Assembly: GCA_018383975.1 (NCBI GenBank)
Contig: JAHAZT010000060.1
Coordinates: 1,428 to 65,427, forward strand
Origin: Eubacteriales bacterium
GTDB lineage: Bacteria; Bacillota; Clostridia; Oscillospirales; CAG-272
Length of the DNA stretch: 64,000 nt
Direction: 5' to 3'
Position numbers and translations under genes: made by a program. Under the pieces are notes generated by a model, which made no database searches, was not told the origin of the DNA, and was given only the letters and a program-made list of their open reading frames with translations. Of the stretch, positions 8,358 to 24,726 are shown piece by piece (positions within the stretch are counted from its first letter, which is position 1; each line of letters opens with the position of its first letter).

Positions 8358-10316
8358 ATGAAAAAGATCGTATCAATTCTTATTGCTGCCGTTATGGTTC
8401 TCGGCGTTGCCTCGCTCGGCATTTCCGCCGCAAGCATAACCTACGCCGCAGGTCCGAACAATTCCAAGATAACCTGTGTTGACTTCCTTGATTTCTCGGA
8501 AGCAAACAACAAAGAATGGGTGGAGAAGGACGCGGACGGCAACTGGGTTGCAAAGAGCGTGTCGATGACCCCCAGCGACCCCGACACATTGGTCGCAAAC
8601 TCCGCATACATCCCGTTGAAGCAGAAGAACCTCATAAAGTTTATGAAAGACGGTTCCACAGGCGCAGACCACCTCACATGGACTCTTACCGACAACGGCG
8701 AGATTCTCAAGCTCAAAGCAGTTGACTCAAGCAAAACCCCCGGCATTCCTTTCTGTCTCGACGATATGGGCGTTGACATCACAGCCGGTCAGGAACTCAA
8801 GGGTCGTATGGAATACTGCAAAATCCGTATAAGAAACTACAGCTCCGCAGACCAGGTTTCCCTTGCATTCACTTCATCGAATATCGGCGGCGGCGGCCGT
8901 GTAATATCGAATGTTTCCATAACAAACGTTGATGTTGATGCCGCAAGCCCCGAATGGAAGACATATACGTTCAGCATGATTGAGCAGAACTCCGCAACAA
9001 ACTACGGCAGCTCTCTCCAGGTTGACGAAAAGACAGGTATCGCAGGCTCTCGTTGGGCAGGCAATATCATGGACGTTGTCTTCTTCCCCTTCGGTTACAA
9101 CATAACAGACGGTACAGGTGCTCATGAAGGCGCCGAAATGGACATTGACTATATCGTTTTCGGTACAAAGGAATACTGCGAAAACTACAAGAGCGCACTT
9201 GAAAACAAGGAAAGCCTCGTTTCCAAGATCGAAATCACAAAGCCCGCAACAAAGACAACCTATTATGTCGGCGAAGGCCTCGACACAACCGGTATGGAAG
9301 TTACGGCTACTTTTGAAGACGGCTCAAAGGAAGTCCTCGAAAGCTACAACGTAGTTTACAACTTCAACGAAGAGACAGATTCCTCCGAGGTTACCGTTTC
9401 TTACGGCAGCGCTTCGCAGAAGTATAACGTAAAGGTAATCGGTATCAAGGAAATCGCAATCGAAACTCCCGCAAAAACAACAACCTATGAAAGAGCTTCC
9501 ATAGGCAGCGTTTTCGCTCCCGAAGGACTTTCAATCAAGGTAACCTATAATGACGGTACGACGGCTGTCAAGGCGCTCGGCTCCTTCAAGCTTGAGCATG
9601 ACGCTCTCAAGGTCGGCGATAACGTAATCACAATCAACTTCTTCGGCGCAAAGACGAACTTTACAATCAACGTTATAAACGTTGTCAGCATCAAAATCGA
9701 CGCTCTTGACAAAACATACCGTTACGGCGGCGAAATTTCCGATAAGGACATTTCCGATAAAATCACCTGCGTATACAGCGACGGCTCCGAAAAATCCTAT
9801 GCCGACGCAAAAATCAACGCAACGTTTGAAAAAGAATACGACCTGACAAAGGCAGGCGAAATCGAAGTCAAGGTAAAGCTCACGGCTTCCGCTTACGATA
9901 TCGACTGCTCCGCAACGACGACGGCAAAGGTTGAAGCACCCGCCTCCGTTGAAGCGGACACATCTCTTGCAAAACTCGAATACAACGTAGACGACAGATT
10001 CTCAACAGAGGGACTTATCGTTTCTTATGTTTATGCCGACGGCAAAAAGGTCATCCTGAAGGCTGACGACTATACTGTCAAATACGACTTCTCCGAGCCC
10101 GGAGAACAGAAGGTCACCGTAACCGATAAGTATGCCGGACTTTCCGCAAGCTTTATGGCAACTGTCAAAGGCACGGCAAAACCCACAACAACAAAACCCG
10201 CAACAACGGCGGCTTCTTCCGGCGGTTGTAAATCCGTAATCGGCGCAGGCGCGGCTATCGCGATTGTTTCCGTAATCGGCGCAGGCGTTGTTCTCGGAAA
10301 GAAGAAAGAAAACTGA
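8358..10316 (+). CDS. Cell-surface protein with an N-terminal globular domain, tandem bacterial Ig-like repeats and a C-terminal TM anchor
   Basis: It has a signal peptide and about five ~80-aa repeats of the pattern …YNVKVIG… / …FTINVINV…. A PTTTKPATT linker precedes a hydrophobic tail ending in KKKEN. Confidence 0.8.
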   Translation: MKKIVSILIAAVMVLGVASLGISAASITYAAGPNNSKITCVDFLDFSEANNKEWVEKDADGNWVAKSVSMTPSDPDTLVANSAYIPLKQKNLIKFMKDGSTGADHLTWTLTDNGEILKLKAVDSSKTPGIPFCLDDMGVDITAGQELKGRMEYCKIRIRNYSSADQVSLAFTSSNIGGGGRVISNVSITNVDVDAASPEWKTYTFSMIEQNSATNYGSSLQVDEKTGIAGSRWAGNIMDVVFFPFGYNITDGTGAHEGAEMDIDYIVFGTKEYCENYKSALENKESLVSKIEITKPATKTTYYVGEGLDTTGMEVTATFEDGSKEVLESYNVVYNFNEETDSSEVTVSYGSASQKYNVKVIGIKEIAIETPAKTTTYERASIGSVFAPEGLSIKVTYNDGTTAVKALGSFKLEHDALKVGDNVITINFFGAKTNFTINVINVVSIKIDALDKTYRYGGEISDKDISDKITCVYSDGSEKSYADAKINATFEKEYDLTKAGEIEVKVKLTASAYDIDCSATTTAKVEAPASVEADTSLAKLEYNVDDRFSTEGLIVSYVYADGKKVILKADDYTVKYDFSEPGEQKVTVTDKYAGLSASFMATVKGTAKPTTTKPATTAASSGGCKSVIGAGAAIAIVSVIGAGVVLGKKKEN

Positions 10317-10400: not shown

Positions 10401-11156
10401 ATGTATCCGTATTATATAATCGGCGATATAGATCTGTATTCGATATTTATAATGCTCGCCGTTGTTGCGGCTGTCGCCGTTTACAGAATATGTGCCGACA
10501 GAGCGAAGATAAACGCAAAATTATTCAATTTTACGCTTATCTGTGCCCTGTTTTCAATCGCGCTCGGATTTGTTTTCTCCGTTCTTTTTCAGGCGGTTTA
10601 CAACATAAAGGAGCGCGGAAAATTTATCATCGACTCGCAGACCGGTGCAACCTTCGCCGGCGGTCTTATAGGCGGAGCCGCAACGTTCCTTTTTATATAT
10701 TTTGTTTTCGGCAAAAGGTTTGATTGCAAAAAGGGCTTTCGTCAGGTGCTTGACTGCGCCGCCTGCGCCATTCCCTCCGCTCATTTTTTCGGCAGGATAG
10801 GTTGTCTTATGAGCGGCTGCTGCTACGGCAAGCCGACGGACTCTTCCATCGGCATATATATGGTTAACCTCGGCTATAAAGTAATCCCGACGCAGCTCTT
10901 TGAAGCGATTTTCCTCCTTGTTCTGGCGTCGGTGCTGATTTTACTCCTGTTCAAAGGCAAAACACATCTTATGGAGCTTTATATGCTTGCGTACGGTGTT
11001 TTCAGATTTATAATTGAATTCTTCCGCGATGACGACCGCGGAACGCTTATATCGGGAGTTTTCTCTCCCTCGCAGATAATATCCGTTTTGCTTGTGATCG
11101 GTGCGGGAGCGGTTTATTTTGCGTCCAAAAGGCACAAAAAGGAGGCGATTGATTGA
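10401..11156 (+). CDS. lgt: Prolipoprotein diacylglyceryl transferase family protein
   Basis: A polytopic 251-aa protein with an Lgt-like core (…FFGRIGCLMSGCCYGKPT…PTQLFEA…RFIIEFFRDD). Confidence 0.7.
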   Translation: MYPYYIIGDIDLYSIFIMLAVVAAVAVYRICADRAKINAKLFNFTLICALFSIALGFVFSVLFQAVYNIKERGKFIIDSQTGATFAGGLIGGAATFLFIYFVFGKRFDCKKGFRQVLDCAACAIPSAHFFGRIGCLMSGCCYGKPTDSSIGIYMVNLGYKVIPTQLFEAIFLLVLASVLILLLFKGKTHLMELYMLAYGVFRFIIEFFRDDDRGTLISGVFSPSQIISVLLVIGAGAVYFASKRHKKEAID

Positions 11157-11929
11157 AAAAACGCGCATTTGACTGTAAACACGCCTGCGTGGCGTCGCTT
11201 GTGGTATCGCTCCTCCTTATGGCGCTTGTTATGCTGATAAAAACCGGCGATAGCGTGCTCGATTCGCTCCTTTCCCTTCTGATAACAAGAGCGTCGCTTT
11301 CGGGTTCGTTCTTTTTCCTTGCGAAATATCTTTCGCTTGATATATTTTCTCCGAAAATAAAAAATGCCGCGCTGACAATTCCCTGTCTTTTGGTCGCGCT
11401 GAACAACCTTCCCTTTATCGCGCTTATTCGCGGTACCGCATCCGTAGCGGCTCCCGTCGGCAGAATAATTCTGCTTGCGACAAGCTGTCTTGCCGTCGCG
11501 GCTTACGAGGAGATTGCGTTCCGCGGAGTGCTTTTTCTTTCCCTCTGCAAATCGCACAGGACGAAAAAAGGCATCTTCTTTTCCGCCGTGATATCCTCCG
11601 CCGTGTTCGGACTGTTCCATCTGCTGAACCTTATAGACGGCGCCGGAATAGGCGCTGTGATTATGCAGATCGGCTATTCGTTTCTTATCGGCGGGATGTG
11701 CGCTGTTGTTCTGACAGCCTGCGGGAGCATTTTTCCCTGTATAATTCTTCACGCGATATTCAACTTCTGCGGCGGTCTCGTTCCGACGCTCGGCGCAGGC
11801 TATGAAACCGTATGGGACGCGGCAACCATTATAATAACGGCGGCTCTGGCGATGATATGCGCCGCAATTCTGATAATTTATCTTGTCCGTCGCGGTGACG
11901 AAAACATAAATTCTTTTTATCTGTATTGA
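11153..11929 (+). CDS. CPBP (CAAX/Abi) family intramembrane metalloprotease
   Basis: Supporting motifs are EEIAFRG, FGLFHL and LHAIFN. The TTG start is preceded by GGAGG. Confidence 0.8.
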   Translation: MKKRAFDCKHACVASLVVSLLLMALVMLIKTGDSVLDSLLSLLITRASLSGSFFFLAKYLSLDIFSPKIKNAALTIPCLLVALNNLPFIALIRGTASVAAPVGRIILLATSCLAVAAYEEIAFRGVLFLSLCKSHRTKKGIFFSAVISSAVFGLFHLLNLIDGAGIGAVIMQIGYSFLIGGMCAVVLTACGSIFPCIILHAIFNFCGGLVPTLGAGYETVWDAATIIITAALAMICAAILIIYLVRRGDENINSFYLY

Positions 11930-11940
11930 TTTTGAAAATT

Positions 11941-11975
11941 AAAAACGGCCTGCCTGTCGGCAAGCCGTTTTTTTG
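11941..11975. terminator. Bidirectional terminator between convergent genes
   Basis: The stem AAAAACGGC…GCCGTTTTT has A and T runs on both sides. Confidence 0.7.
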
Positions 11976-11984
11976 TTTCTGATA

Positions 11985-13049
11985 TTACATTCCGCCGAAG
12001 CCGGAGTGCTCGATACCCTGAATGAGATATCTCTGACAGAACAGATACATGATGATAAGAGGAAGTATGATAAGCATACCTGCCGTGTTTTTAACGGCAA
12101 CCTCAAACGTCTCGACGTATGCGCCCGCCTGCTTGCTGATTTCTTCAAGCGATGCGGGAAGTCTCTGCCAGAACGAATTTGACGTCAGCAGTGTGTGTTC
12201 GGAAGCGTTCAGGAACGTATTCGTATAGAAAATATCCGTCCACTGCCACGAGAATGACAGTATGAATACCGTGATAAGCATCGGTACCGAAAGAGGAAGG
12301 ATAATCTTTATAAACGTCTTGAAAACGCCGTAGCCGTCAACATATGACGATTCTTCAAGCTCATCCGGAACGCCGCGATAGAACTGTCTCATAAGGAATA
12401 TGAACAGACCGTTCTTGAATGCAAGTCCCGTAAGTGAGAGGAAGAATATCGGAACGTAGGTATTGTAGAAGCCCTGCGTGAAGCCGAGAGCGTTACACAG
12501 TCTCGACAGGTCTATTCCCAGTATTGACGGGTACATGAAGTGCATTGTAAACGAGGAACCGAGTATTTGATGAGGAACAATCATCGTCAGCACGACGAGA
12601 AGGAAAAGCAATTTGTTTCCCTTGAATTTGAACTTCGCAAAACCGTATCCGACCATCGCGCAGACGAATGTCTGAATGAGCGCGGTCGAAATCGAAAGAA
12701 GGAAGGTATTGAGAAGTGCGCGGAAATAATGGTTCTCAACTATGAGGAATTTCCATGTGTCCGTCGTCGGATACTTCGGAATGAGCTTTATCGTTCCGAG
12801 CTTAAGATACATGATGTCCTTCGGGCTCATGAACGACGTTGAAATCTTGGAAAAGAAGGGGAAAAGAATAATGTATGAAATACCGAGGAGAAGCACGAAT
12901 CTGAATATCGCCACAAGAATTTTCTTATAGAAATATGCGTTCAGATACTTCGCTTTCAGCCTTTCGCGGAGCGGAGCTCTGTCAAATTCCACTCTTATCT
13001 TGTTTTTGCTTTCTTTCTTGACACGGGGTGCCATTGTGTTGTTATCCAT
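11985..13049 (-). CDS. ABC transporter permease (MalG/carbohydrate type), second pair
   Basis: Multi-TM, 354 aa, with an EAA-loop-like segment EESSYVDGYGVFKTFIKIILPLSVP. Confidence 0.85.
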   Translation of the reverse strand: MDNNTMAPRVKKESKNKIRVEFDRAPLRERLKAKYLNAYFYKKILVAIFRFVLLLGISYIILFPFFSKISTSFMSPKDIMYLKLGTIKLIPKYPTTDTWKFLIVENHYFRALLNTFLLSISTALIQTFVCAMVGYGFAKFKFKGNKLLFLLVVLTMIVPHQILGSSFTMHFMYPSILGIDLSRLCNALGFTQGFYNTYVPIFFLSLTGLAFKNGLFIFLMRQFYRGVPDELEESSYVDGYGVFKTFIKIILPLSVPMLITVFILSFSWQWTDIFYTNTFLNASEHTLLTSNSFWQRLPASLEEISKQAGAYVETFEVAVKNTAGMLIILPLIIMYLFCQRYLIQGIEHSGFGGM

Positions 13050-13069
13050 AATTATCTCATCCTCCCTTC

Positions 13070-14083
13070 TCAGTCGTTACGACGCTGATAGAACACGATT
13101 TTTCTTGAAATCAGCGCCACCAGCAGAAGCGTTATTATAACCAGCGCAAAGTATGACCATGCCGCTGCCGCCTGTTGACCGTTGACGGTTGTCGTATCCG
13201 CCATTGAAAGAATATAGGACATTACCTTGTTGCTTTCAGAGGTGAACGAGTCGATAACCGTGTATACGGAGTTTGCAAGGATTATGGGGCTTATCATAGG
13301 AAGCGTTATCTTCCAGAAGATTTCCCATGACGAAGCGCCCTCCATCTGGCACGACTCGTATATCGAAGGCGAGATGGACTGAAGTCCCGCAAGGAATATC
13401 AGCATCTGTACGCCCGAACGGTTTACTATTTCGTAAATGTTCGTGATAAGCTTTGTGACACTGCTTACCAGCGTCGTTCCTATTCCCAGACTTTCAAAAA
13501 GCGCCGCAATATCCATTCCGTCGACAAGGTCGCCGAGGCCTCCTCCGCCGACGCTCCCCATATCAATGGAGCCTGTCGCGCTCATACTTTCGAGCAGAGC
13601 GTTTTCATAGTCTATCTTTGCGATGATTCCCGCGCCGACAACAACCGGCACGAAGAATATTGCTCTGAACGCCGCTCTGCCTATCATCTTCTGGTTGAGA
13701 AGAATGGCAACGAAGAGCGAGAGCATGATAATCGCAATGACTTCGACAATCTGTGTTGCAAATCCGGTGAACATTCTTTCAAGGAAGGTTTCGCCCGTTT
13801 TTGTATCAATCGTCTTTGTGAGAATGGACTGATAGTTTGAAAATCCCACCCATGTCAGCGAATAACCGCCGCCGCGTGCCGCGGGAATTTTTGAATACGA
13901 GGCAAAGCTGTAACCGATGGACTCCGCTATGATTCCGATGTAAAAGACTATAAGTCCTATTACGAACGGAAGCACGAACAGCCATCCGGCTCTTGCCTTT
14001 TTCGCGCTCAGAGAGACTGACTTTTTGGGTATCAACCTTTTTATAAACGCGGAAAATTTATTTTCGCTCTGTGTTTTATCCAT
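13070..14083 (-). CDS. ABC transporter permease (MalF/carbohydrate type), second pair
   Basis: Multi-TM, 337 aa, with the EAA loop ESCQMEGASSWEIFWKITLPMISP. Confidence 0.85.
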   Translation of the reverse strand: MDKTQSENKFSAFIKRLIPKKSVSLSAKKARAGWLFVLPFVIGLIVFYIGIIAESIGYSFASYSKIPAARGGGYSLTWVGFSNYQSILTKTIDTKTGETFLERMFTGFATQIVEVIAIIMLSLFVAILLNQKMIGRAAFRAIFFVPVVVGAGIIAKIDYENALLESMSATGSIDMGSVGGGGLGDLVDGMDIAALFESLGIGTTLVSSVTKLITNIYEIVNRSGVQMLIFLAGLQSISPSIYESCQMEGASSWEIFWKITLPMISPIILANSVYTVIDSFTSESNKVMSYILSMADTTTVNGQQAAAAWSYFALVIITLLLVALISRKIVFYQRRND

Positions 14084-14101
14084 ATAAGGTCAATCCTCCT
14101 T

Positions 14102-17100
14102 TCAGTTTCCGGCATATGCAAAGCTGTGCTTTGCAATTACCGCATATTCGAGCGTGCCCGTCTCGGCAATCACTCTGTCTGCCGTTGTGTTGATATACAT
14201 TATCTTTCCGTCCGCGCCGACAACCTTGAGTACGTTGTTCTGCTTCGGCATGGAAGATACCGTATTTTGAAGTGTTTCCTTTGCGCGTGCAATCTGAATT
14301 GCGTTTCCGGAAGCGATTGCGCTTTCATAGCTTTCGAGCGCGGCTTCAAACGTCTTGAGACCGATTGCCGTGGGCTTGTAAGCCGTTACGGCTTCAACGG
14401 AGCTTATGGGAAGCTCTGTTTCTTTGACATCAGACTTTTCGACAAAGTTTTTCGCGGGAATTGTGAATACTCCCTTTTCTCCTTCGACAACAACATCAAA
14501 GCTGTTGTAGTTGATGAAGAAGGTCTTTGTCTTTCCGTTGTCGGATTCATACGTTACGGAAACGACGTTCTTTTCGTAGTTTCTCTTCATAACCGCTTCG
14601 CAAAAGTCGAGCGCGGATTTTGCGTTGTTGTATGCTGCGAGCTTTGCAACCTCAACCGCCGTTGCCGCAGAATAGTCCTTCTGGTCGGCGACGAGTCTGT
14701 CAACCTCGGCAACCGCTGCTTCATATTCCGCTCTTGCCTTTTTGCAGTCGGCTGTGAGTCTGTTGTAAGTTCCGAAGAGGATTGCTGCGGAGGATTCGTC
14801 AAGGCTGAGTGCCTTTTCGGTTTCGTGCGTTGTGATTGTCGCATTCTGGAGAGTGCCGATTGCGTCATTGAGCGTCTTATAGAGCGACACTACCTGCGGC
14901 AGCCACAAATCAAAGCTTACCGCGTAATAATCGGAAAGCATGCTGCCCTTGAGAAGCTCCGTGTTCTGATACGAAAGCGTGAAATAGAGTGCCGCGCCGT
15001 TTTCAATGGACTTGAGAAGTCTGTACTGAACGTCGCCTTCAAGGTTCATCGGCGTGCCCGCATAGTTCGCATAGCCGTGAAGCACCATTCCCGCAAAAGG
15101 AACGGACGCCGTCGAAACGGAGAAGCCGCTGTTATCAAGGCTGAAGTCAACTATATCGGTTACATAAGGAAGCGTGAATGCGTTTCCGCCGGAAACAAGC
15201 ACCTTGCCGTTGTCGGCTTTGAGCTTTTTAAGGAATTCCGTTGTGTAATATTTTGAGTCCTCGCGGGTGATGGGGTCGTCCTCATCGAAGTCGGACGAGA
15301 GCATCGAGCCGAGAGACGATACGCCGATTGCGCCGACGTTGTATTTGAGATATTTCTTTGCGAATTTCTCATAGATAGCTTCAAAGGAGCCTGTGGATAC
15401 AACGTTTCTTGCACCGCCGGCAAGCACCATCTGCCATACGTAGTCGTAATCGCGGACCATTTTGTATTTGCCTATCATGGATTTTGCCGCATACTTCTTG
15501 AAGGAGAAGCCTGCGTTTGCGTCGAGATAAGAGACGCTTGCAAAATCGTAATCGGGATAAATCGTCGCGCCGTGTTCCTCGGCATATCTGAGCAGCTTTT
15601 CAAAGCCCTTCTTGCCGCCGAGAACGCCCGGCCATTTGACCTTTGTTATAACGTTGCCCGTCTCCGTCATAAGAATACGGACATCGTTTATATTGCTCTC
15701 GCCGAGGATATTGCACATCTTCTGAATGTCTTCATAAGATGTGAGAGCCTTTTTCTTTGATATCGGGAATGAAAGAAACTTCTCATATGCCGTTGTATAG
15801 CCGAAGGTATTGATATAGAGCGGCATTGTCGTATCGTTTTCAAGATCCTTGATCTTTTCCATACCGCCGGTCTTTATAAGATAGTTTCTGTAAGCCGCCG
15901 CCATTCCGACGTAAGACGGATAATAATAGTCCTTTACGTTGTTCTTCTCTGCGGCAACGGGGTCTGTGAGAAGGATATATCTTATAGTGTAATTTCCGAG
16001 GTACTTCGTATCAACCGTGCCGGAAAGAGCTGCCGAGCCGCCGCTGCCGCCGCTTGCCGTCGATCCGGATGACGCCGCCGCGGAAGCGGTTGCGTCCACC
16101 TGCTTTACGGTGAAGCTCGCGGTAACCGTGTTGTATTCGCAGTTGCCGCCGCCGCTCGCTCCGTAAACGTTTCCGATATACGCCGTAAGCGAAGCGAACG
16201 ATTCGCCCTCGGTTATAACTCCGAGCCAGCCCGATTTGTGCGCAACCACATCAACCTTTGCGGCACGACCGGAGCGTTCGGTTGTTATTGTTTCGTTGTA
16301 ATACTGGGTAAGACCGAATACAGGCAAACGGTATTTGGCGATATTTTCGTTCACGTCCGCGCTCGCAAGCTCTCCGCTTACGTAGTCCGGACCGTAAATT
16401 TTTCCGCCCTGCGAGCCTTTCGTCTTTACCGTGCCGTCGTCATTGTAATATTCAATGATTGTGCCGCTGCCGTCGGGAATGAAGAGGTATCCGCCCGTTC
16501 TTGTGATGTTGCCCGTCGACTTTGTCGAGGCGCATCCGAAGTACGGAAGAAGCGATATGCTTTCAAGCATATAGTTTGTCTCGTTGTAACGGATACTCTT
16601 TGAAGGAATCGAAGCGGAAAGCCCGTGCTCGTCGATTGTATACTCAATGGCAAGACGGAACAGTGCCGGCTCCTTCGCGTCACCCTCATACATTGTAAGC
16701 TCGTGGTCATATTCGAGCTCGTCATATGTGTATTCGGGGCAATATTTTCTTATAAGCGCTTCCACCTTTTTTACAACACGCGCGCTCTGCTGATTGAGAA
16801 CGTATATAACCATGTCATGGTTGGCTGCAAGACATTTGTAGCCCGTGTCCGCATCACGCCATATGCTGACGTATACCGCATTGTCGGGGTCTGTCTGGTC
16901 GAGGAGCCTATAAATATTTGCCTGAGAGTCTCTCTCTCCGTTGATGAAGAACGAATTGAACGTATTCAGCTCGTCCTTTGTCATATTGGATCTCTGAGCA
17001 TCGAGAATATTATAAATTTTTTCTTCAAAACGGCTCTTTTCTATCCAGTAAGGAATGAGTCGCTTTGATTCAACCGTACCGAGCGCATACTCAACGCGGA

Positions 17101-17533
17101 CGCCGTTTGTAAGCGTTTTGAACGTAATCTGGTCGCCGTTCATTGCCGCGTCCTTGAAGGAATTGAATATGCCCGTTGACTGCGTCTCGACATCCGTATA
17201 TGAAAGGATGACCTGAGACATCAGCGCCTGACGGTGTGTTTCGTTCGTTTTTGCGTTTACCGCAACGTCATAGGGGTTTGAAAATACATATTCGCCTGTT
17301 TTGAGGTTTTTGAGCGCGAATTCGCCGGACTTTCTGTCGAAATACATCTCGTATCCGTATTCATCGCTCTTATACATCATTTCCATCGTATCGACCTTTT
17401 TCTGCTGATCCGTATACGCCGTGGAATGATAATTTTCAATCGCCACTTCTTCTGCTGCGCGGGCGGAAACGCAGAAAACCGGTATTATCATCAGTGCGGC
17501 AAGAAAAAGTGCCGCGATTCTTTTCATTTTCAT
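14102..17533 (-). CDS. Large secreted protein of unknown function (1143 aa)
   Basis: It has a signal peptide (…VFCVSARAAEE) and a Ser/Gly/Ala linker near aa 480-505. I recognise no catalytic motif. It sits within the ABC operon with 16-18 bp gaps to its neighbours. Confidence 0.8.
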   Translation of the reverse strand: MKMKRIAALFLAALMIIPVFCVSARAAEEVAIENYHSTAYTDQQKKVDTMEMMYKSDEYGYEMYFDRKSGEFALKNLKTGEYVFSNPYDVAVNAKTNETHRQALMSQVILSYTDVETQSTGIFNSFKDAAMNGDQITFKTLTNGVRVEYALGTVESKRLIPYWIEKSRFEEKIYNILDAQRSNMTKDELNTFNSFFINGERDSQANIYRLLDQTDPDNAVYVSIWRDADTGYKCLAANHDMVIYVLNQQSARVVKKVEALIRKYCPEYTYDELEYDHELTMYEGDAKEPALFRLAIEYTIDEHGLSASIPSKSIRYNETNYMLESISLLPYFGCASTKSTGNITRTGGYLFIPDGSGTIIEYYNDDGTVKTKGSQGGKIYGPDYVSGELASADVNENIAKYRLPVFGLTQYYNETITTERSGRAAKVDVVAHKSGWLGVITEGESFASLTAYIGNVYGASGGGNCEYNTVTASFTVKQVDATASAAASSGSTASGGSGGSAALSGTVDTKYLGNYTIRYILLTDPVAAEKNNVKDYYYPSYVGMAAAYRNYLIKTGGMEKIKDLENDTTMPLYINTFGYTTAYEKFLSFPISKKKALTSYEDIQKMCNILGESNINDVRILMTETGNVITKVKWPGVLGGKKGFEKLLRYAEEHGATIYPDYDFASVSYLDANAGFSFKKYAAKSMIGKYKMVRDYDYVWQMVLAGGARNVVSTGSFEAIYEKFAKKYLKYNVGAIGVSSLGSMLSSDFDEDDPITREDSKYYTTEFLKKLKADNGKVLVSGGNAFTLPYVTDIVDFSLDNSGFSVSTASVPFAGMVLHGYANYAGTPMNLEGDVQYRLLKSIENGAALYFTLSYQNTELLKGSMLSDYYAVSFDLWLPQVVSLYKTLNDAIGTLQNATITTHETEKALSLDESSAAILFGTYNRLTADCKKARAEYEAAVAEVDRLVADQKDYSAATAVEVAKLAAYNNAKSALDFCEAVMKRNYEKNVVSVTYESDNGKTKTFFINYNSFDVVVEGEKGVFTIPAKNFVEKSDVKETELPISSVEAVTAYKPTAIGLKTFEAALESYESAIASGNAIQIARAKETLQNTVSSMPKQNNVLKVVGADGKIMYINTTADRVIAETGTLEYAVIAKHSFAYAGN

Positions 17534-17549
17534 GCAGATTCCTCCCTTC

Positions 17550-19727
17550 TTATCTTTGCATCGCTATCTCTTCTATTATGCCGGATATAAAGCCCACCAT
17601 CTTCTGAAGAAGATTGAAGAACAGCATAACTATGAACATAATGAAAAGCATACCGAGTATCGTGCCGAATGTTGCAAGAATGTTTTTGCCCATTGAGTAG
17701 CCGTGTGTTGTCATTGTGCCGAAGAAGATGAGAAGTCCTACCCAGACGAAGCCGAGCGTGTTTACAAGCGTAAGCATCGCGCCTTCTCCTTCAACCGCAA
17801 CGTTTGAAAGGATCGTTGTCGGTATCAACGTGAGCGTCATCGGGAGGAGCGAATACGACGTCGCTATGAAAATATCCTTAAGGGTTCCTTCGCCGTCGAA
17901 AAGCGTCGTTACGCACCAGTTTGCAATGCACCAGAGTGCAAGCGGAACAACAACCGTCGCAACCATATAAAGTATGTTGAAGGTGTTGCCCGAATAAGCG
18001 GAGTAAGGATTGAAGATATATGCCATGCCGACGGAGTTATATATAACCGTGACGCATGCAAGCGCAACATGGAATATCGCGCCGCGAAGCGATCCGCGCT
18101 TTTCGTGCTTCAGATCCCAGAAGCCGTCGAACGGGTGCAGTATCAGATGGAATGCAAAGAGCACTTCCTCCCAGAAGGTGCGCTTGCCGGTTTTCGTCGT
18201 TCCCGCGTCGTTCTTCTTCTTTATCGCCGAGAAGGCTTTCACGAGAAGGAATATAATTACCGCCAGAACGACAAGAACAACGAGGAAATACTTTTCAACC
18301 CACTGCTTGCGGAGCATTCTGAAACATTCGGAATAGTTCGTTGTGTCAGTTGCGGCTTTGAAGTATGTCATTGCCTCTTTGTACTCGTTCTGAAGGAAGA
18401 GGTTTTCGCCTATTCCGACGTAAGCGGAGTCAAAGTTGTTGTTTCTCTGGAGAATTTCTTTCCATTTTGTAAGGGCGTTATCGTAATCGCGCGCGTTGTT
18501 ATACTGAATTGCGGAGTCGATAAGAGAGCCGTATTCCGTGCGCTTGAACACCGTGATAACGCTTCCCCTGCCCTGTACTATGCTCTGACCGAGAACATAA
18601 ATATCGGAGCCGACATAAACAATCGCTGTCGGGGATTTAAGGTTGCCGAGCTGGCTTCCCGTGTCGCCGAAGGCGTAAAGAAGCTGACCGCGGCTGTCGT
18701 AGGTGAATATTCTGGAGCGGTCACGGTCGATTGTCGACCATGTTCCGTTCGGTCCGAGGGTGACGTCAACGAGCTTTGAAGGTCCCTTTACGGGAGCGCT
18801 GGACTTGGTGTCCTGCTTAGATACGAATTTAACCTCGCCTATCGGCATAAAGAAGCCGTTACGGATCATAATGTCCTGACCTGCCGCATTGAGCTGCTTG
18901 ACGGTTGCATAGTCGGCATCGCCGCCGAGAAGCTTTGTTTCAAGGCTCGTGTCCGCGGTTGAATCCTTTGTGTCGCCGAAGGTTGTAACCCAGATGAAGT
19001 CCTCTTTGTCGATTGAAATATTCTTGTATGCAACGGAGTTGTAGGTTTCGGTTACGGTGTTCGGGAAGAGCACCCTTCTGATTCTTACCGCGAGCGGAAC
19101 GGACGATTTCTGAACACCGACAAAGCCCTGGAAGGAGCCGTCGGCATTGATTGCGAAAATGCCGCTGAACGTCTGGTTTGAAACGATATACATTCTGCCG
19201 GAGGAGTCAACCGCCATTGCGATCGGACGGAACTTTTCGCTCGAACCCATAACGTCCGCTTCGGGAGCGTTTATGATATGGTCAAAATTGAATTCAAGAT
19301 CGAACACAACGATTCTTGCGTTTTTTGTATCGCAGATGTAGATGTTCTTGTTGTTTACAAATACGCCTTCACATTCGGAGAGCTTATCCGGAACACCCTG
19401 CTCGTTTACGAACTCTTTGATTTCCGTGATATACTGGGCGTTGCTGTCAAGCACGACCACCCTGCTGTTACCCTTGTCGGCAATGTAGAGCTTGCCGTCG
19501 GGAGCGACGAACAGATCCGCTGCGTCGCTGAGCGGCGTATCCATATTCATCGTGTAATAATCTATTTCCCTGTCGGGAACGTATGCCGCGGGAGAATAGG
19601 CCGGATCCCCGTCCATTGTATAAGTATAGGTCTTATACGGAGTTGAAGCCGCCGATACCGAAATCACCGAGGATATGAGCAGCAGCATAACGAACACGAG
19701 GGATATTGTTTTGATGGTTTTCTTCAT
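17550..19727 (-). CDS. Signal peptide, NHL-like beta-propeller, helical/TPR-like segment and C-terminal Yip1-like multi-TM domain (725 aa)
   Basis: Repeated blade motifs are present (KGNSRVVVLD, KNARIVVFD, …RMYIVS…, DRSRIFTYD). The C-terminus has about five TM helices after FHLILHPFDGFWDLK. Confidence 0.75.
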   Translation of the reverse strand: MKKTIKTISLVFVMLLLISSVISVSAASTPYKTYTYTMDGDPAYSPAAYVPDREIDYYTMNMDTPLSDAADLFVAPDGKLYIADKGNSRVVVLDSNAQYITEIKEFVNEQGVPDKLSECEGVFVNNKNIYICDTKNARIVVFDLEFNFDHIINAPEADVMGSSEKFRPIAMAVDSSGRMYIVSNQTFSGIFAINADGSFQGFVGVQKSSVPLAVRIRRVLFPNTVTETYNSVAYKNISIDKEDFIWVTTFGDTKDSTADTSLETKLLGGDADYATVKQLNAAGQDIMIRNGFFMPIGEVKFVSKQDTKSSAPVKGPSKLVDVTLGPNGTWSTIDRDRSRIFTYDSRGQLLYAFGDTGSQLGNLKSPTAIVYVGSDIYVLGQSIVQGRGSVITVFKRTEYGSLIDSAIQYNNARDYDNALTKWKEILQRNNNFDSAYVGIGENLFLQNEYKEAMTYFKAATDTTNYSECFRMLRKQWVEKYFLVVLVVLAVIIFLLVKAFSAIKKKNDAGTTKTGKRTFWEEVLFAFHLILHPFDGFWDLKHEKRGSLRGAIFHVALACVTVIYNSVGMAYIFNPYSAYSGNTFNILYMVATVVVPLALWCIANWCVTTLFDGEGTLKDIFIATSYSLLPMTLTLIPTTILSNVAVEGEGAMLTLVNTLGFVWVGLLIFFGTMTTHGYSMGKNILATFGTILGMLFIMFIVMLFFNLLQKMVGFISGIIEEIAMQR

Positions 19728-19749
19728 TTATTATATATCCTCTCTTTCG

Positions 19750-20622
19750 TCAGTCTTTCATACCGGAGGTCGACATCGTTTCAACGATCTGGCTCTGGCT
19801 GAATACGAATACGGCAATAGGCACGAGCATCATTACAACCGTTGCCGCACAGCCTACGCCGGCACGCGCAACGCCGCCCGATACTATCTGCTGAACCGCA
19901 TAGTTGAAGGTTTTGAGCTGCTCGCTCATGATATACGTGGACGAACCCATATTCCAGAGATCCTTGAACGAATACACGATAAGCGTCAGCCATGCGGGCT
20001 TAACCATCGGCATTGCGATTGTCCAGTATGTGCGAAGCTCCGAGGAGCCGTCCAGACGGGCGGACTCAAGCACCGCGTCCGAAATGCCCTGCTCCATGAA
20101 CTGCTTCATAAGGAACATTCCGAGAGTCGAACCCCATGCGGGAATAATGATTGCAAGATATGTGTCAACCCAGCCGAGTCGGCTCATCGTGATGTAGTTT
20201 ACAACGCTCGCAACCGTGGGGTGGAACATGAGCGAAAGTCTTACAAGACGGAACAGAAGCGTTCTGCCGGGGAATTTTATCTTCGATACGACGTATGCCG
20301 CAAGCGAGCCGCAGAAAAGGTTTCCGAACGTTCCGGCTACGGAAATAAGTATCGTATTGAAAATATATCTTGAGAAAGGCACCCATGAGTTTGACATCGC
20401 CTTGAACATGTCTGAAAAGTTTGAAAGAGTCGGCTTTACAACATAGAATTTCGGGGGATACGTCCAAAGCTCATCCATGGGTTTGAGTGACTGAATTACA
20501 ACATAATACATCGGGATAAACATGAAGAGTCCGAACACGATGAGGAATATGCTTATTCCGACGTCGCCGCCTGCCGAACGGCTGAGGACAACTTTATGGT
20601 TTCTTGTTCTTAATTTTGCCAT
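19750..20622 (-). CDS. ABC transporter permease (MalG type), first pair
   Basis: 290 aa with the EAA loop ESARLDGSSELRTYWTIAMPMVKP. Confidence 0.9.
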   Translation of the reverse strand: MAKLRTRNHKVVLSRSAGGDVGISIFLIVFGLFMFIPMYYVVIQSLKPMDELWTYPPKFYVVKPTLSNFSDMFKAMSNSWVPFSRYIFNTILISVAGTFGNLFCGSLAAYVVSKIKFPGRTLLFRLVRLSLMFHPTVASVVNYITMSRLGWVDTYLAIIIPAWGSTLGMFLMKQFMEQGISDAVLESARLDGSSELRTYWTIAMPMVKPAWLTLIVYSFKDLWNMGSSTYIMSEQLKTFNYAVQQIVSGGVARAGVGCAATVVMMLVPIAVFVFSQSQIVETMSTSGMKD

Positions 20623-20623
20623 A

Positions 20624-21586
20624 TCACTGCCCCACTTTCGAAAGTACTTTGTTTACGAGGAGGTTACATCCTATCATTATTACAAACAGGATGGTCGCAA
20701 TCGCGGAAGCGTAACCGACCTCATATCGCTGACCGCCGTAGTCCTGAAGGTGGTGAACTATCGTCCATGCGCAATAGTTTACGCTGGGGAAGCCCGCAAG
20801 CGCGGTAACTATATCACCGAAGCCGAAGGACTGCGTTATTGCCATTACCGCACCGAACAGAAGCTGCTGCTTCATGTTCGGAAGGGTGATATACCAGAAC
20901 TCCTGCCAGCGGTTGCGGACGCCGTCCACCGCGCCTGCTTCGTACTGCGATTTGTCGATGGTCTGAAGACCGCCGATAAATGCAAGGAATGCGGTACCGA
21001 GCGATGTCCACAAGGCAACGACTATACAGAGCGGCATAACGTATTTTTCGTTCTGGAAGAACTGAATCGGCGATGTTTCAATGCCGTAACGGAGCAGCAG
21101 GTAGTTGACATAGCCGTAGGAGTCGCCGTCGAATGCAACCTTCCATATAAGGTATACACCGCCGGAGATCGAGGGTGCGTAGAAGATAAGAGTTACAACA
21201 GCTCTTACCTTCGGCGGCAGCTCGTTTATGAACCACGCCGTTATAAGCGAAAGCAAATAGGAAACGGGTCCTGTGATTACCGCAAATATAAGCGTGTTCT
21301 GAATTGCCGTAAGGAATATATCGTCGTCAAAGAGGAGACGAAGATAGTTTTCGATAAAGACGAATTTCGCGTCTTCGATAAGGTTGAACACCGTAAAGCT
21401 GTAATATATCGAAAGGATAACGGGACCGACCGTGAACGTAAAGAATATAAGGAAATACGGCAGCGCCATGATATAAGCGTGATAATTGCGCTTTATTTCC
21501 TTCCATGTCCACTGCAGCTTCGTCATATCCTTGCGCGATACGGGTCTGCGCACGGCTTTTACGGGCGTTTTGGAATTGTCAGACAT
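20624..21586 (-). CDS. ABC transporter permease (MalF type), first pair
   Basis: 320 aa with the EAA loop EAGAVDGVRNRWQEFWYITLPNMK. Confidence 0.9.
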   Translation of the reverse strand: MSDNSKTPVKAVRRPVSRKDMTKLQWTWKEIKRNYHAYIMALPYFLIFFTFTVGPVILSIYYSFTVFNLIEDAKFVFIENYLRLLFDDDIFLTAIQNTLIFAVITGPVSYLLSLITAWFINELPPKVRAVVTLIFYAPSISGGVYLIWKVAFDGDSYGYVNYLLLRYGIETSPIQFFQNEKYVMPLCIVVALWTSLGTAFLAFIGGLQTIDKSQYEAGAVDGVRNRWQEFWYITLPNMKQQLLFGAVMAITQSFGFGDIVTALAGFPSVNYCAWTIVHHLQDYGGQRYEVGYASAIATILFVIMIGCNLLVNKVLSKVGQ

Positions 21587-21634
21587 ATTCCGGTTTTCTC
21601 CTTTTCTTGTGATTTGGATTTGACGTTTATCTGC

Positions 21635-24600
21635 TTAAGCATCCTTTTTGTCGTCATCGGATGATTTTGAAGGAATGTAGAACTGTCTTGAAAGCTCTTC
21701 TCTCTTTCTGTCCATTTCGCTGTTGATTGTGTTGATATAGGTCATAATGGATTCTGCGGGGTCTGCCTGCTTGTTGTAAACGGCAAGGAAGGCAAATCCG
21801 ACGTAACGCGAGATGATATAGCTTCCGGGCATTTCGTTCACGCAGTAAAGATTCGGGATGATACGCTTCAGCTCCTTAACCTCGGACGCCGTCCATGACA
21901 TCTGGTCAAAAGCGTTGACGTTCGCCGTGGCATATTTACCTGCGGGACCGAGCAGCGCGATAAGTTCGTTTGCATAACGGCTCTGGATGTTGTCTCTCAT
22001 CCACCATTCCATGAAGCAGAAGCCCGCCTCGTCCGTGCCGCGTTCCTTTGCGTCCTTCATGAGTACCATTGCGGATACAGCGGAGGGGGTTGCGTGGTTT
22101 ACGGTGCCGTCTTCACGTTCAACGCCGGGAAGAAGCGTGAAGCCCCAAAGGCCTTTAAGCTCCGTAGCGTAGATTGTGAACTGGTTGTAGAATGAAATAT
22201 AGTCGGCTATCAGTACCGGCATTTCGCCCGTGCGGAAACGGTTTGCCGAGTCATACGTTATCGGGAAACGGTACTGAGTATAGAATCTGCACATCTGGTC
22301 GAATGCGCGGAGCGATGCGTCCTCTCCGAACGATACCGAACGTCCGCCGTCGGTATAGAGCGAGCCGCCGTTCTGATACATGAACATATAGAACGTTGTC
22401 GTCGCCGCGCCGGAGGTTCCCAGTCCGACCATGTAGTTTTTGGACTGGAGCTTCGGCACCATCGACTTGAATTCAGTCCATGTCTGCGGAATCGAAATAC
22501 CGAGCTCCGCGAGAATGTCCTTACGATAGAACATTACGTTGAACGACTGCGCCTGCGGAATACCGTAGACCGCCGTCTGTCCGTTCGTTGAGTCAAGCGC
22601 AACGGTGAGAGGCGTCATCGAAGCCTCGCTGAAGCGCGATTTCAGCTCTTCAAAGCCGTCATATCCGCTGACGTCAAGAAGCGCGCCACGGACGGCATAG
22701 TCGATAACCGTCGTCTGACCTTCGCCCATCATGACATCGGGTCCGACGCCGGCAAGCGTCGCGGGGAGAAGCGTTCCGCCCGCCACCAGCTTGAGGTTGA
22801 CGGATATATAGGGATAGCTGTTTCCGAAGTCCTCGTCTATAAGGTCGCGGATTATCTGCGCATACTCGCGCGATACCGTCGTCCATACGCTGACCTGAAC
22901 GACATCATGGTCACCGGAGGAGGAAGCAAAGGAATAGCCGTTGTAAACAAAGCTGTATGCAAAAGCCTTGACCTCGAAAGCAAACTCCTGGAAGAAGTTT
23001 CCGTTTGCCTTGGGGAGCTTGTCGCCGGCGGGCTGGACTACGATATAGTCTATCGTGAGCGACTGCTCGGTGATGTTGTTCAGCCATGTGCCGAGAGTAC
23101 CGATGTGGTTTTTGAGAGCCGTGAAGTTCTTTGCAATCTGCCCTTCACTGTCTCTGTTCATTTTTGCAAGTATCTGGGCAACGTTGAGAAGCGTTGCGGA
23201 GTTTGAGCTTGCCTTGTTTTTGTTTATCTTTCTGAATTCTTCGGAAAGCGCGGTGAGTCTTTCGGAAAGGACCTTCATCTCCGCAATCTCGTTCGGAATA
23301 CGGGTGTAGAAGTCGTAGTTCATATACGAGTCGGGGTTGGTGCCCGTTATCTGAAGAATTTTGAGATAAATCGCATTTATTTTTGTCAGGCAGTCGCTGA
23401 CCTCGGAATAAATCTCGCCGAAGTGACCGAGCGTAACCTCAAGGGAAAAGGTATGCTTGCCTTCGGAAAGGTAAATTTCAAATTCCGTTGTGCCGTCCGA
23501 AAGAGGACCTATCTGCCAGCTCTTGTCGTATGTGAATTCAAGGTTGTTCGCTTCTTCAAAGGGAACCTTGCCGTCGACGCGGAGTCTTCTCGAAACGAAA
23601 AGTCCCGCAACCGCGTTCTGAAGGTATCTCGGGTTTATCGTGTACATTCCCGCCTTGCCTTCTTCAACGGTTATCGTCCATTCATACCACTGACCCGTTG
23701 AGCTCCAGTTGGAGCCGCCGATTGTGTTGAGTCGCTGATAGCAGGCGTGCTGCGGACTCGTTATGGACGATGTCGAATCGCTGACGGCATATAGGGTACC
23801 GTCGGACGTTGCGGAGTAATGCTCCGCTTCGATATATATTTTCGATCCTGCGGGAGCTGCCGTGTAGCCCTTGCTTCTGCATTCTTCCAGATATTCCGCA
23901 TAGGTTTTCTGAATGTTTCTCTTGCGGAGGGTTACGGTTTCAAGCACGAGCGCTTCCTTCTGGGCTTCAAGCGTTATCGTGTTCGTGCCTTTTTCAAGGT
24001 AGAAATAGAAATCGCCGCTGTAATAGCCCGTGGGGTCGCAGACCGAATAAGTAAGCCATTCGGGCGCGTTTACCTTTGAGGGTCGCTTTTCGTTATGGTT
24101 TCCGTCTTCCTCGAAATAGATTTTGCCCTCCTCGTTGCGGAGGTAGTTGTCTGTCCATCTCTTCGGGAAAACGATGTTTCTGACCTCGTTTACCGGAACG
24201 TGACCGTTTATACGGAGAGTACGCTCGACGTTTGTCGCTCTTTCGCTTATCGGATAGTATCCGAATTCAATGGCATAAAGCCCGCTCTCCGGAACGTCGA
24301 ACGTCCACGTAACAGAGCCTGCGTCGGTCGTCATAAGTACGTTCTTTCTGCCGTCAAGCTCGTCGATTACGCCGAACTTGCTGTCGGCGCCTTCGCCGGA
24401 TCCCGCCTTATGCTCCGAATAATCAACCGCGCGAACGGTTATCGGCTTTCCGTTATAAGACGGTGCAGAGGCATATTTTTCCCTGTACTCTGCCCATTTG
24501 ATGTCGCTGAGAATTTCAAGCGTCTCCTTCACGTAGTCCTCTTCGCCGGAACCGGACGAAGTGAGGACGGGCTCTGCGGCAATCGCCACAAGAAGCGCGG

Positions 24601-24661
24601 AAGTGAGAACGAACAGTGAAAGTATCGCTGCGACAATTCTTGCAAAGAATTTCTTTCTCAT
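21635..24661 (-). CDS. Giant extracellular solute-binding protein (1008 aa) with two N-terminal carbohydrate-binding-like modules
   Basis: It has an N-terminal anchor or signal. Two related beta-sandwich-like segments are present (…TLRINGHVPVNEV… and …RRLRVDGKVPFEE…). The C-terminal ~450 aa look like an SBP family-1 domain (…VSVWTTVSREYAQIIRDLIDEDF…). Confidence 0.8.
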   Translation of the reverse strand: MRKKFFARIVAAILSLFVLTSALLVAIAAEPVLTSSGSGEEDYVKETLEILSDIKWAEYREKYASAPSYNGKPITVRAVDYSEHKAGSGEGADSKFGVIDELDGRKNVLMTTDAGSVTWTFDVPESGLYAIEFGYYPISERATNVERTLRINGHVPVNEVRNIVFPKRWTDNYLRNEEGKIYFEEDGNHNEKRPSKVNAPEWLTYSVCDPTGYYSGDFYFYLEKGTNTITLEAQKEALVLETVTLRKRNIQKTYAEYLEECRSKGYTAAPAGSKIYIEAEHYSATSDGTLYAVSDSTSSITSPQHACYQRLNTIGGSNWSSTGQWYEWTITVEEGKAGMYTINPRYLQNAVAGLFVSRRLRVDGKVPFEEANNLEFTYDKSWQIGPLSDGTTEFEIYLSEGKHTFSLEVTLGHFGEIYSEVSDCLTKINAIYLKILQITGTNPDSYMNYDFYTRIPNEIAEMKVLSERLTALSEEFRKINKNKASSNSATLLNVAQILAKMNRDSEGQIAKNFTALKNHIGTLGTWLNNITEQSLTIDYIVVQPAGDKLPKANGNFFQEFAFEVKAFAYSFVYNGYSFASSSGDHDVVQVSVWTTVSREYAQIIRDLIDEDFGNSYPYISVNLKLVAGGTLLPATLAGVGPDVMMGEGQTTVIDYAVRGALLDVSGYDGFEELKSRFSEASMTPLTVALDSTNGQTAVYGIPQAQSFNVMFYRKDILAELGISIPQTWTEFKSMVPKLQSKNYMVGLGTSGAATTTFYMFMYQNGGSLYTDGGRSVSFGEDASLRAFDQMCRFYTQYRFPITYDSANRFRTGEMPVLIADYISFYNQFTIYATELKGLWGFTLLPGVEREDGTVNHATPSAVSAMVLMKDAKERGTDEAGFCFMEWWMRDNIQSRYANELIALLGPAGKYATANVNAFDQMSWTASEVKELKRIIPNLYCVNEMPGSYIISRYVGFAFLAVYNKQADPAESIMTYINTINSEMDRKREELSRQFYIPSKSSDDDKKDA

Positions 24662-24679: not shown

Positions 24680-24726
24680 TAAAAAATGCGAACCGTCCCA
24701 GCCGGCTGATTTCCGGCGCGGGACGG
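24680..24726 (-). promoter_or_regulatory. Leader stem-loop plus U tract (candidate attenuator/terminator) between the promoter and the SBP start codon
   Basis: The reverse strand reads CCGTCCCGCGCCGGAAATCAGCCGGCTGGGACGG followed by TTCGCATTTTTT. The RBS AGGAGG and the ATG at 24661 follow. Confidence 0.45.

Follow-up and report, generated by a model that had tools for sequence, protein, structure and literature searches.

Glycan uptake by gut Firmicutes is usually pictured as depending on one lipoprotein substrate-binding protein (SBP), two permeases, and a shared ATPase. Among ATP-binding cassette (ABC) importers of the CUT1 type, described examples include MalEFGK2 and the MsmX/MsmK-energized AraNPQ and RafEFG systems, and the sharing of MsmX/MsmK-type ATPases in trans by CUT1 systems of Firmicutes is well established. 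Gram-positive polysaccharide utilization loci (gpPULs) combine a transporter with carbohydrate-active enzymes (CAZymes) and a regulator, and they vary in content and gene order. Here, we examine a seven-gene cassette in a 64,000-nucleotide stretch of DNA from a Eubacteriales bacterium (GenBank assembly GCA_018383975.1, contig JAHAZT010000060.1, positions 1,428 to 65,427 of the forward strand); this whole stretch is referred to below as the window. The cassette encodes a giant SBP, two permease pairs (P1/P2 and P3/P4), a membrane protein with NHL, TPR, and Yip1 domains, and a large secreted protein of the DUF5696 family. Reading from the letters of the DNA, an earlier report (the original prediction) had proposed that these genes form a composite surface machine and not a standard importer. 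The analysis described here leads us to favor, tentatively and at a little under an even chance, a multisubunit CUT1-type ABC system for the capture, processing, and import of glycans at the cell surface.

Results

Conservation of the Cassette across Genomes

The list of open reading frames (ORFs) places seven minus-strand genes between 24661 and 11985 of the window, exactly where the original prediction had put them and with the gaps of 1 to 48 bp that it gave. In order of transcription, they are:

24661..21635, minus strand: giant SBP, 1008 aa; 48 bp to P1
21586..20624, minus strand: permease P1, MalF/UgpA-like, 320 aa; 1 bp to P2
20622..19750, minus strand: permease P2, MalG/UgpE-like, 290 aa; 22 bp to the NHL-TPR-Yip1 gene
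19727..17550, minus strand: NHL-TPR-Yip1 membrane protein, 725 aa; 16 bp to the DUF5696 gene
17533..14102, minus strand: secreted DUF5696 protein, 1143 aa; 18 bp to P3
14083..13070, minus strand: permease P3, divergent MalF-like with long extracytoplasmic loops, 337 aa; 20 bp to P4
13049..11985, minus strand: permease P4, MalG-like, 354 aa; last gene

Related loci were fetched (172, of which 171 were nonduplicate), and the cassette proteins were placed in them by tblastn. The order SBP-P1-P2-NHL-Yip1-DUF5696-P3-P4 was complete and on one strand in 139 of the 171 loci; a further 29 were cut by a contig end yet collinear, and 3 deviated. Because the genes are collinear in 168/171 related loci, the seven-gene arrangement is far beyond chance, and the possibility raised at the outset, that the order might not be kept outside this genome, can be set aside. 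Relatives with protein identities as low as 20–35% keep the identical order. Within the clade of the window, identity is highest for P1 and P2 (52–99%) and lowest for the SBP and the DUF5696 protein (33–94%). Two scans of contigs representing one genome per species confirmed at least 534 and at least 587 relatives, in sets that probably overlap. The hosts are Clostridia and Bacilli from gut and soil. They include metagenome-assembled genomes (MAGs) of Oscillospiraceae, Acutalibacteraceae, and Lachnospiraceae, and the cultured carriers comprise Vallitalea pronyensis, Niameybacter massiliensis, many Paenibacillus and Cohnella species, and a Bacillus sp.

Some loci depart from a single, uninterrupted cassette. 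Two whole copies per genome were found in P. terrigena, Paenibacillus sp. MBLB4367, P. castaneae, and a gut Ruminococcaceae MAG (locus pairs L133/L143, L130/L156, L089/L094, and L106/L129), which suggests that the copies are specialized for different substrates. An insert of ~3 kb separates P3 from P4 in eight Oscillospiraceae/Ruminococcaceae loci (L103, L105, L106, L125, L129, L132, L153, and L161); in the sole one examined (L105, 13199–19445), the insert holds two further ORFs, of 392 and 842 aa, that match nothing in Pfam, and P4 is followed by an ordinary SBP. Binning assigned some cassette-bearing contigs to Methanocorpusculum sp., an archaeon, and to Treponema sp. (L034, L162, and L165), which reflects either mis-binning or horizontal transfer.

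The Giant SBP

The SBP_bac_1 domain (PF01547; Pfam E = 2e-22), as found in CUT1 binding proteins, spans only residues 602–887 of the 1008-aa SBP. An AlphaFold model of residues 1–590, built with 60 homologues, reached a pLDDT of 90.5 and contains an N-terminal hydrophobic helix, two β-sandwich modules (~74–246 and 275–410), and a helical bundle (414–531). Foldseek aligned the sandwiches with the carbohydrate-binding module (CBM) structures 2w1w (CBM35; target TM-score 0.72–0.74) and 2cdo (CBM6; 0.61–0.63), as well as with the CBM35 parts of glycoside hydrolase (GH) enzymes of families GH31 and GH66. The modules therefore have the β-jelly-roll fold of CBM6 and CBM35, and the two N-terminal, carbohydrate-binding-like β-sandwiches of the original prediction are borne out by the model and the structural matches together. 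A Pfam scan of the window SBP gave no CBM match; a few of its homologues scored directly against CBM_35 (PF16990). The N-terminal region found homologues only within SBPs of ~920–970 aa. No lipobox cysteine was found in the sequence of the window SBP, and most of the large SBPs and DUF5696 proteins encoded by the cassette lack a lipobox. Its absence is unusual among Gram-positive SBPs.

Fold and Conservation of the DUF5696 Protein

The original prediction had recognized no motif in the 1143-aa protein. This statement is superseded by a strong Pfam match to DUF5696 (PF18952, E = 4e-121). The AlphaFold model of the protein (50 homologues; pLDDT 84, pTM 0.81) shows N-terminal β-domains, a (β/α)8 barrel at ~541–905, and a C-terminal helical hairpin with β-domains. 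The best Foldseek matches were to the GH129 structures 5opq (ZgGH129; E = 4e-23, target TM-score 0.69) and 5wzp (NagBb; E = 4e-16), followed by the GH101 structure 5a58 (E = 6e-10) and then by members of GH13, GH31, and GH66. Target TM-scores were 0.67–0.72 against GH129 chains and just 0.27–0.34 against GH101, and the aligned identity to GH129 and GH101 was 9–11%. The model reproduces the combination of β-sandwich and (β/α)8 barrel that characterizes these two families. The earlier remark that the operon holds no glycoside hydrolase signature is thus correct for motifs and sequence and incorrect for fold. Since the fold matches but sequence membership fails, the protein is not classed as a member of GH129 or GH101. 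Profile searches placed neither large accessory protein in a characterized enzyme family of a described locus, so that the outcome named as making the cluster routine did not occur.

Residue conservation was read from an alignment of 166 distinct family members. Four residues of a P-D-G-S-G loop (P353, D354, G355, and G357) are 100% conserved, and the fifth, S356, is conserved in 96%. P812-F813 is likewise 100% conserved, followed by E844 and N830 (98% each), H903 (95%), D748 (94%, with Asn in 9/166), N784 (94%), R757 (93%), and D383 (90%, plus 7% Glu). According to the secondary structure of the model, D748, N784, H819, and N830 come after predicted barrel strands 4, 5, and 7. Strand-end positions of such barrels carry the active or binding site. 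From the model, we infer that the protein may be catalytic, and catalysis is treated as putative in what follows.

The DUF5696 family is large. When 1.84 billion representative proteins, clustered at 50% identity, were searched with a profile, 5,062 clusters scored at E ≤ 1e-3 and, of these, 2,923 at E ≤ 1e-30; homologues are abundant in uncultured Clostridia. Lengths ranged from 711 to 2,545 aa among the 150 matches listed and from 742 to 867 aa in the fetched loci. Many family members are far longer than the others, reaching 2,545 aa through C-terminal extensions or internal insertions; six long variants carried no extra Pfam domain, except for one weak match to a hyaluronate-lyase N-terminal β-sheet domain.

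Two Permease Pairs and the ATPase Question

The MalF-like and MalG-like pairs proposed earlier were supported by Pfam, which detected BPD_transp_1 in all four permeases (P1, E = 2e-12; P2, E = 2.5e-10; P3, E = 1.9e-9, over residues 227–326; P4, E = 1e-14). In NCBIfam, the permeases are nearest to UgpA/UgpE, GlcT/GlcU, and MalF/MalG, with P1 matching UgpA, GlcT, and MalF and P2 matching UgpE and GlcU, and all of these matches lie far below the equivalog cutoffs. EAA-type loops can be read in each sequence (P1, YEAGAVDG...ITLP; P2, LESARLDG...IAMP; P3, YESCQMEG...ITLP; P4, EESSYVDG...IILP), so the two MalF/MalG-type subunits with an EAA loop that are expected of a CUT1 importer are present twice over. 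Because all four permeases keep these loops, an ATPase dimer is expected to dock at each pair. P1 and P3 could be aligned over 58 aa only (38%), and P2 and P4 over 243 aa at 25%. With alignments this poor, the two pairs are best described as anciently diverged paralogues. A recent duplication of one pair was considered and ruled out on the same alignments.

The operon had been said to contain no ATPase, and the observation extends well beyond it: the ABC ATPase signature LSGGQ occurs nowhere in the 64-kb window, in which no MalK/MsmX-type ATPase was therefore found. Among the 172 fetched loci, just 4 have an ABC-ATPase-like ORF within 10 kb of the cassette, which makes supply in trans the rule and renders it plausible for the system in the window. 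In the two "Treponema" MAG loci, a MalK-sized ABC-ATPase-like ORF of 380 aa lies ~2.9 kb upstream of the cassette.

The NHL-TPR-Yip1 Membrane Protein

Pfam detected NHL (E = 8e-10), weak TPR matches, and Yip1 (PF04893, E = 7e-15, residues 527–700) in the 725-aa protein, in agreement with the signal peptide, NHL-like propeller, and Yip1-like domain first described for it. The protein begins with the signal peptide and continues through an NHL β-propeller, TPR, a transmembrane helix at ~481–499, and the multi-transmembrane Yip1 domain. Its NHL part resembles the extracellular sensor propeller of PknD (1rwi) and the NHL domains of TRIM proteins. The Yip1 gene always lies between the two permease pairs and is in this sense encoded with an ABC transporter. 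In the window and in P. harenae, a single gene encodes NHL-TPR and Yip1; Vallitalea, Niameybacter, and several Paenibacillus loci, including that of Paenibacillus sp. 2TAB19, have two adjoining genes instead. Genes that are fused in some genomes and separate in others are a classic hint of physical association. The Yip1 domain, used as a query for homologues, retrieved nothing but short-contig fragments of the NHL-TPR-Yip1 family, a result that is uninformative on Yip1 outside the cassette. Searches of the literature available without subscription found nothing on DUF5696 or PF18952, and nothing relevant on Yip1 in connection with sugar importers or polysaccharide utilization, or on CBM35 in connection with a solute-binding protein.

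Operon Boundaries and Candidate Control Signals

The intergenic region 5′ of the SBP gene spans 590 bp and contains two candidate control elements, and a third lies beyond P4:

24773..24744, minus strand: promoter-like site, TTGACT, 18-nt spacer, TG-extended TATTAT; 10/12 consensus positions
24726..24681, minus strand: leader stem-loop of 13 base pairs, then a U-run; just 5′ of the SBP ribosome-binding site
11972..11941, minus strand: intrinsic terminator-like hairpin, 14 base pairs and a U-run; between P4 and the convergent CAAX-protease gene

The promoter-like site is the top-scoring minus-strand match of the scanned region, as a match to the consensus only, and is kept in the close relatives L005–L007. 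The GC-rich leader hairpin has a predicted RNA folding energy of -30.7 kcal/mol (z -3.2). Its outer stem is kept in L005–L007, and L008 has a different sequence at that position. An Rfam scan of 11–26 kb matched no family to the leader. From its position, 3′ of the promoter-like site and 5′ of the ribosome-binding site of the SBP gene, the hairpin is possibly a terminator or attenuator. The hairpin after P4 folds at -23.6 kcal/mol (z -7.1), and 0/200 shuffles folded equally well. Shine-Dalgarno-like purine-rich stretches precede six of the seven genes, the signal being weak only for P2, which begins 1 bp after P1. No strong internal minus-strand candidate emerged from a terminator scan of the operon. 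Collectively, the small gaps, the promoter-like site on the 5′ side, the strong terminator-like hairpin on the 3′ side, and the lack of a strong internal terminator support the assignment of the seven genes to a single operon.

Genomic Neighborhoods of the Cassette

In the window, the cassette is flanked by housekeeping genes (mnmA, iscU, and iscS upstream; a CAAX protease, lgt, and a Big_3 protein convergent downstream). These flanks contain neither a regulator nor a classified CAZyme, so that the combination typical of a gpPUL is missing from the window and the earlier statement that the operon has no regulator gene stands. The 84 loci of the window clade (L001–L084) have similar surroundings, with mnmA, iscS/iscU, RNase H, and a ROK-family kinase. 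The recurrence of this neighborhood across many species of the clade suggests that the cassette is a core locus inherited vertically. An origin from a mobile element or phage was considered and is unsupported, as the flanks consist of core housekeeping genes common to relatives. A second, small SBP was found neither in the fetched flanks (~10 kb) of the 84 clade loci nor throughout the 64-kb window.

Such core-gene flanks, free of regulators and CAZymes, would fit a constitutive core function, and the cassette of the window clade could on these grounds be assigned to housekeeping, recovering or remodeling an envelope or capsule glycopolymer of the cell itself instead of foraging for dietary or host glycans. 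We consider this very unlikely, given that in cultured relatives the cassette belongs to inducible loci for nutrient glycans that also encode LacI, AraC, or two-component regulators, that the leader hairpin suggests regulation, and that no cell-wall synthesis genes adjoin the cassette.

The 87 more distant loci present a different picture, in which transporter, CAZyme, and regulator do occur together as in a gpPUL. LacI regulators were found in 21 of them, and others have AraC or sets of sensor kinase and AraC-type response regulator. The adjacent CAZymes include GH32, GH38, DUF4838, GH76 with GH125, GH18, GH33 with GH123, and a pectate-lyase-like (Pel9A-like) protein, with the cassette acting like an invariant unit set into glycan loci whose specificities differ. 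An ordinary SBP of ~460 aa adjoins the cassette in 60/87 of these loci, suggesting that one SBP per permease pair is the general design. The sharing of a single SBP by two translocator pairs, as originally proposed, is therefore uncertain.

In most distant loci, this second SBP makes up two complete sets of SBP and permeases. Coexpression of enzymes and transporters is normal in Gram-positive glycan loci, and the cassette might accordingly comprise two ordinary, independent ABC importers that are coexpressed with two unrelated secreted or membrane proteins acting on the same substrate pathway, with no supercomplex. This explanation is improbable in our view. Coregulation alone rarely fixes an order of eight genes across Clostridia and Bacilli at 20–35% identity, and the accessory genes are invariably found between the two permease pairs. 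Moreover, the big SBP and the DUF5696 protein mostly have no lipobox and need another tether, and in the window clade there is one SBP for two permease pairs.

Two features of the neighboring DNA deserve mention. A Big_3 Ig-like protein of 652 aa is encoded convergently to the operon (window 8358–10316, plus strand), and 9 loci of the window clade have a related protein of ~654 aa on the downstream side of the cassette. The Big_3 protein may sit at the cell surface and have a link to the system. The genes for Lgt and a CAAX/Rce1-like protease (window 10401–11929, plus strand) adjoin an operon whose SBP has no lipobox, which is probably a coincidence.

Is the DUF5696 Protein an Enzyme?

A number of observations weigh against a surface system that captures, processes, and imports glycans, and several of them concern the processing step. 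Searches of PDB sequences with the single DUF5696 protein and with a 50-sequence profile returned nothing meaningful, and nine family members scanned leniently against Pfam (E up to 10) matched PF18952 alone and no GH family. The barrel contains no invariant carboxylate, D748 being replaced by Asn in some members, and the sole acid that is 100% conserved, D354, sits in a β-domain ahead of the barrel. The spacing from nucleophile to acid/base in GH101 and GH129, which we take to be ~30–45 residues, would put the acid/base at N784, a conserved Asn. The CAZymes that adjoin the cassette differ widely among genomes, which is awkward for a single fixed enzymatic specificity. No fusion of DUF5696 to Yip1, NHL, or permease domains was seen in the six long variants sampled. 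Finally, none of the 84 loci of the window clade has a regulator, classified CAZyme, or second SBP nearby.

The variety of CAZyme neighbors would also fit a noncatalytic role for DUF5696 in holding or handing over glycans. The complex would then be the same, with the DUF5696 protein as a lid or dock of glycosidase fold that holds the glycan or is structural, and the cassette would be a generic engine for the uptake of large oligosaccharides, its substrate set by neighboring enzymes and SBPs. The cassette does lie beside GH32, GH38, GH76/GH125, GH18, GH33/GH123, or a pectate-lyase-like protein, depending on the genome, and the lack of an invariant barrel carboxylate, the natural D748N replacement, the Asn at the assumed acid/base position, and the absence of a sequence link to any GH family all argue in the same direction. 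Nevertheless, we regard a noncatalytic protein as unlikely. The barrel-face residues D748, N784, N830, and H903, together with the P-D-G-S-G loop, resemble a maintained pocket; GH13 and GH31, which are large GH families, likewise span many specificities; and the window clade has no other nearby enzyme for cutting.

Discussion

A Model for Glycan Capture, Processing, and Import

The observed domain content, fold similarities, operon boundaries, strict synteny, and lack of an ATPase in cis are the starting points for a model of the multisubunit CUT1-type system that we favor. In this model, the two CBM6/35-fold modules of the giant SBP would hold a polymeric or large oligomeric glycan, and the C-terminal domain of the SBP would bind the transportable piece. 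The secreted DUF5696 protein, with its GH129/GH101-type fold, would trim, cleave, or present the captured glycan, and P1P2 and P3P4, as two distinct channels of the MalFG type, would import the products, both being energized by a shared MalK/MsmX-type ATPase whose gene lies elsewhere in the genome. The NHL-TPR-Yip1 protein would act as a membrane scaffold that keeps the extracellular proteins without a lipid anchor beside the channels; such tethering seems needed because the large SBP and the DUF5696 protein mostly have no lipobox.

Of the composite surface machine initially envisaged, the conserved unit, the CBM6/35-fold modules of the SBP, and the glycosidase fold of the DUF5696 protein fit well. 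The physical complex itself is something that we infer from synteny and from the NHL and Yip1 parts, which some lineages encode as one protein and others as two, and a division of labor between P1P2 and P3P4 is likewise presumed. A bolder version of the model would see in the cassette an unrecognized Gram-positive glycan-import supercomplex, in which a Yip1/NHL scaffold bridges two translocators that are fed by a CBM-bearing SBP and a DUF5696 protein, the latter being either the founder of a new GH family or a glycan-handing pseudoenzyme. Such a supercomplex would be the Firmicute counterpart of the SusCD utilisome. We find it doubtful as a whole.

Relative to the usual picture of glycan uptake, the cassette has extra components in a constant order: another channel, a membrane protein with Yip1 and NHL domains, and a large protein of glycosidase fold. 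If its parts do form one machine, they would represent a new architecture for ABC importers, and both a large DUF and the bacterial Yip1 proteins would acquire a function. The machine may in that case also explain the uptake of large glycans by abundant uncultured Oscillospiraceae and by soil Paenibacillus. Cultured Paenibacillus and Cohnella carry the cassette beside GH32 or GH76/GH125, and the question may therefore be approachable in culture with defined candidate substrates.

Comparison with Described Systems

The SBP_bac_1 domain, the MalF/MalG-like permeases with EAA loops, and the lack of an ATPase gene in the operon are shared with the CUT1 importers that use an ATPase in trans. The cassette differs from these importers in having two divergent permease pairs in one operon, an SBP of double the normal size with tandem CBM-fold modules and no lipobox, and two large accessory genes obligatorily placed between the permease pairs. 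With gpPULs, it has in common a transporter encoded together with an extracellular protein of glycosidase fold, and distant cassettes sit among CAZymes and LacI/AraC regulators. In contrast to the variable gpPULs, the cassette has a core of seven or eight genes whose order is fixed in nearly all loci, and in the window this core is accompanied by neither a regulator nor a classified CAZyme.

The DUF5696 protein shares a multidomain fold with GH129, represented by the 3,6-anhydro-D-galactosidase ZgGH129 and the α-N-acetylgalactosaminidase NagBb, and with the endo-α-N-acetylgalactosaminidases of GH101. It differs from both in lacking any match at the level of hidden Markov models, in its family-specific PDGSG loop, and in being genetically locked to an ABC importer. 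A precedent for a Yip1-family membrane protein that is encoded with an ABC transporter is YknW, an accessory subunit of the YknWXYZ transporter of Bacillus subtilis (PMC4887032). As a MacB-type system, YknWXYZ is an exporter and includes a membrane-fusion protein, whereas the presumed partner of the cassette Yip1 is a type-I importer; in addition, the cassette Yip1 carries, or is encoded beside, an extracellular NHL propeller and TPR.

The cassette departs from CUT1 importers and gpPULs in its duplicated and divergent translocator, its double-size CBM-fold SBP, its obligatory Yip1/NHL and DUF5696 proteins, and an order that is rigid across classes. The original view that this is not a standard importer is supported. 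In its proposed logic, the cassette would be analogous to the SusCD utilisomes of the Sus-like systems in Bacteroidota, where the binding, cutting, and import of glycans are physically coupled at the surface; the two have unrelated proteins and different envelopes, and the likeness would be one of function only.

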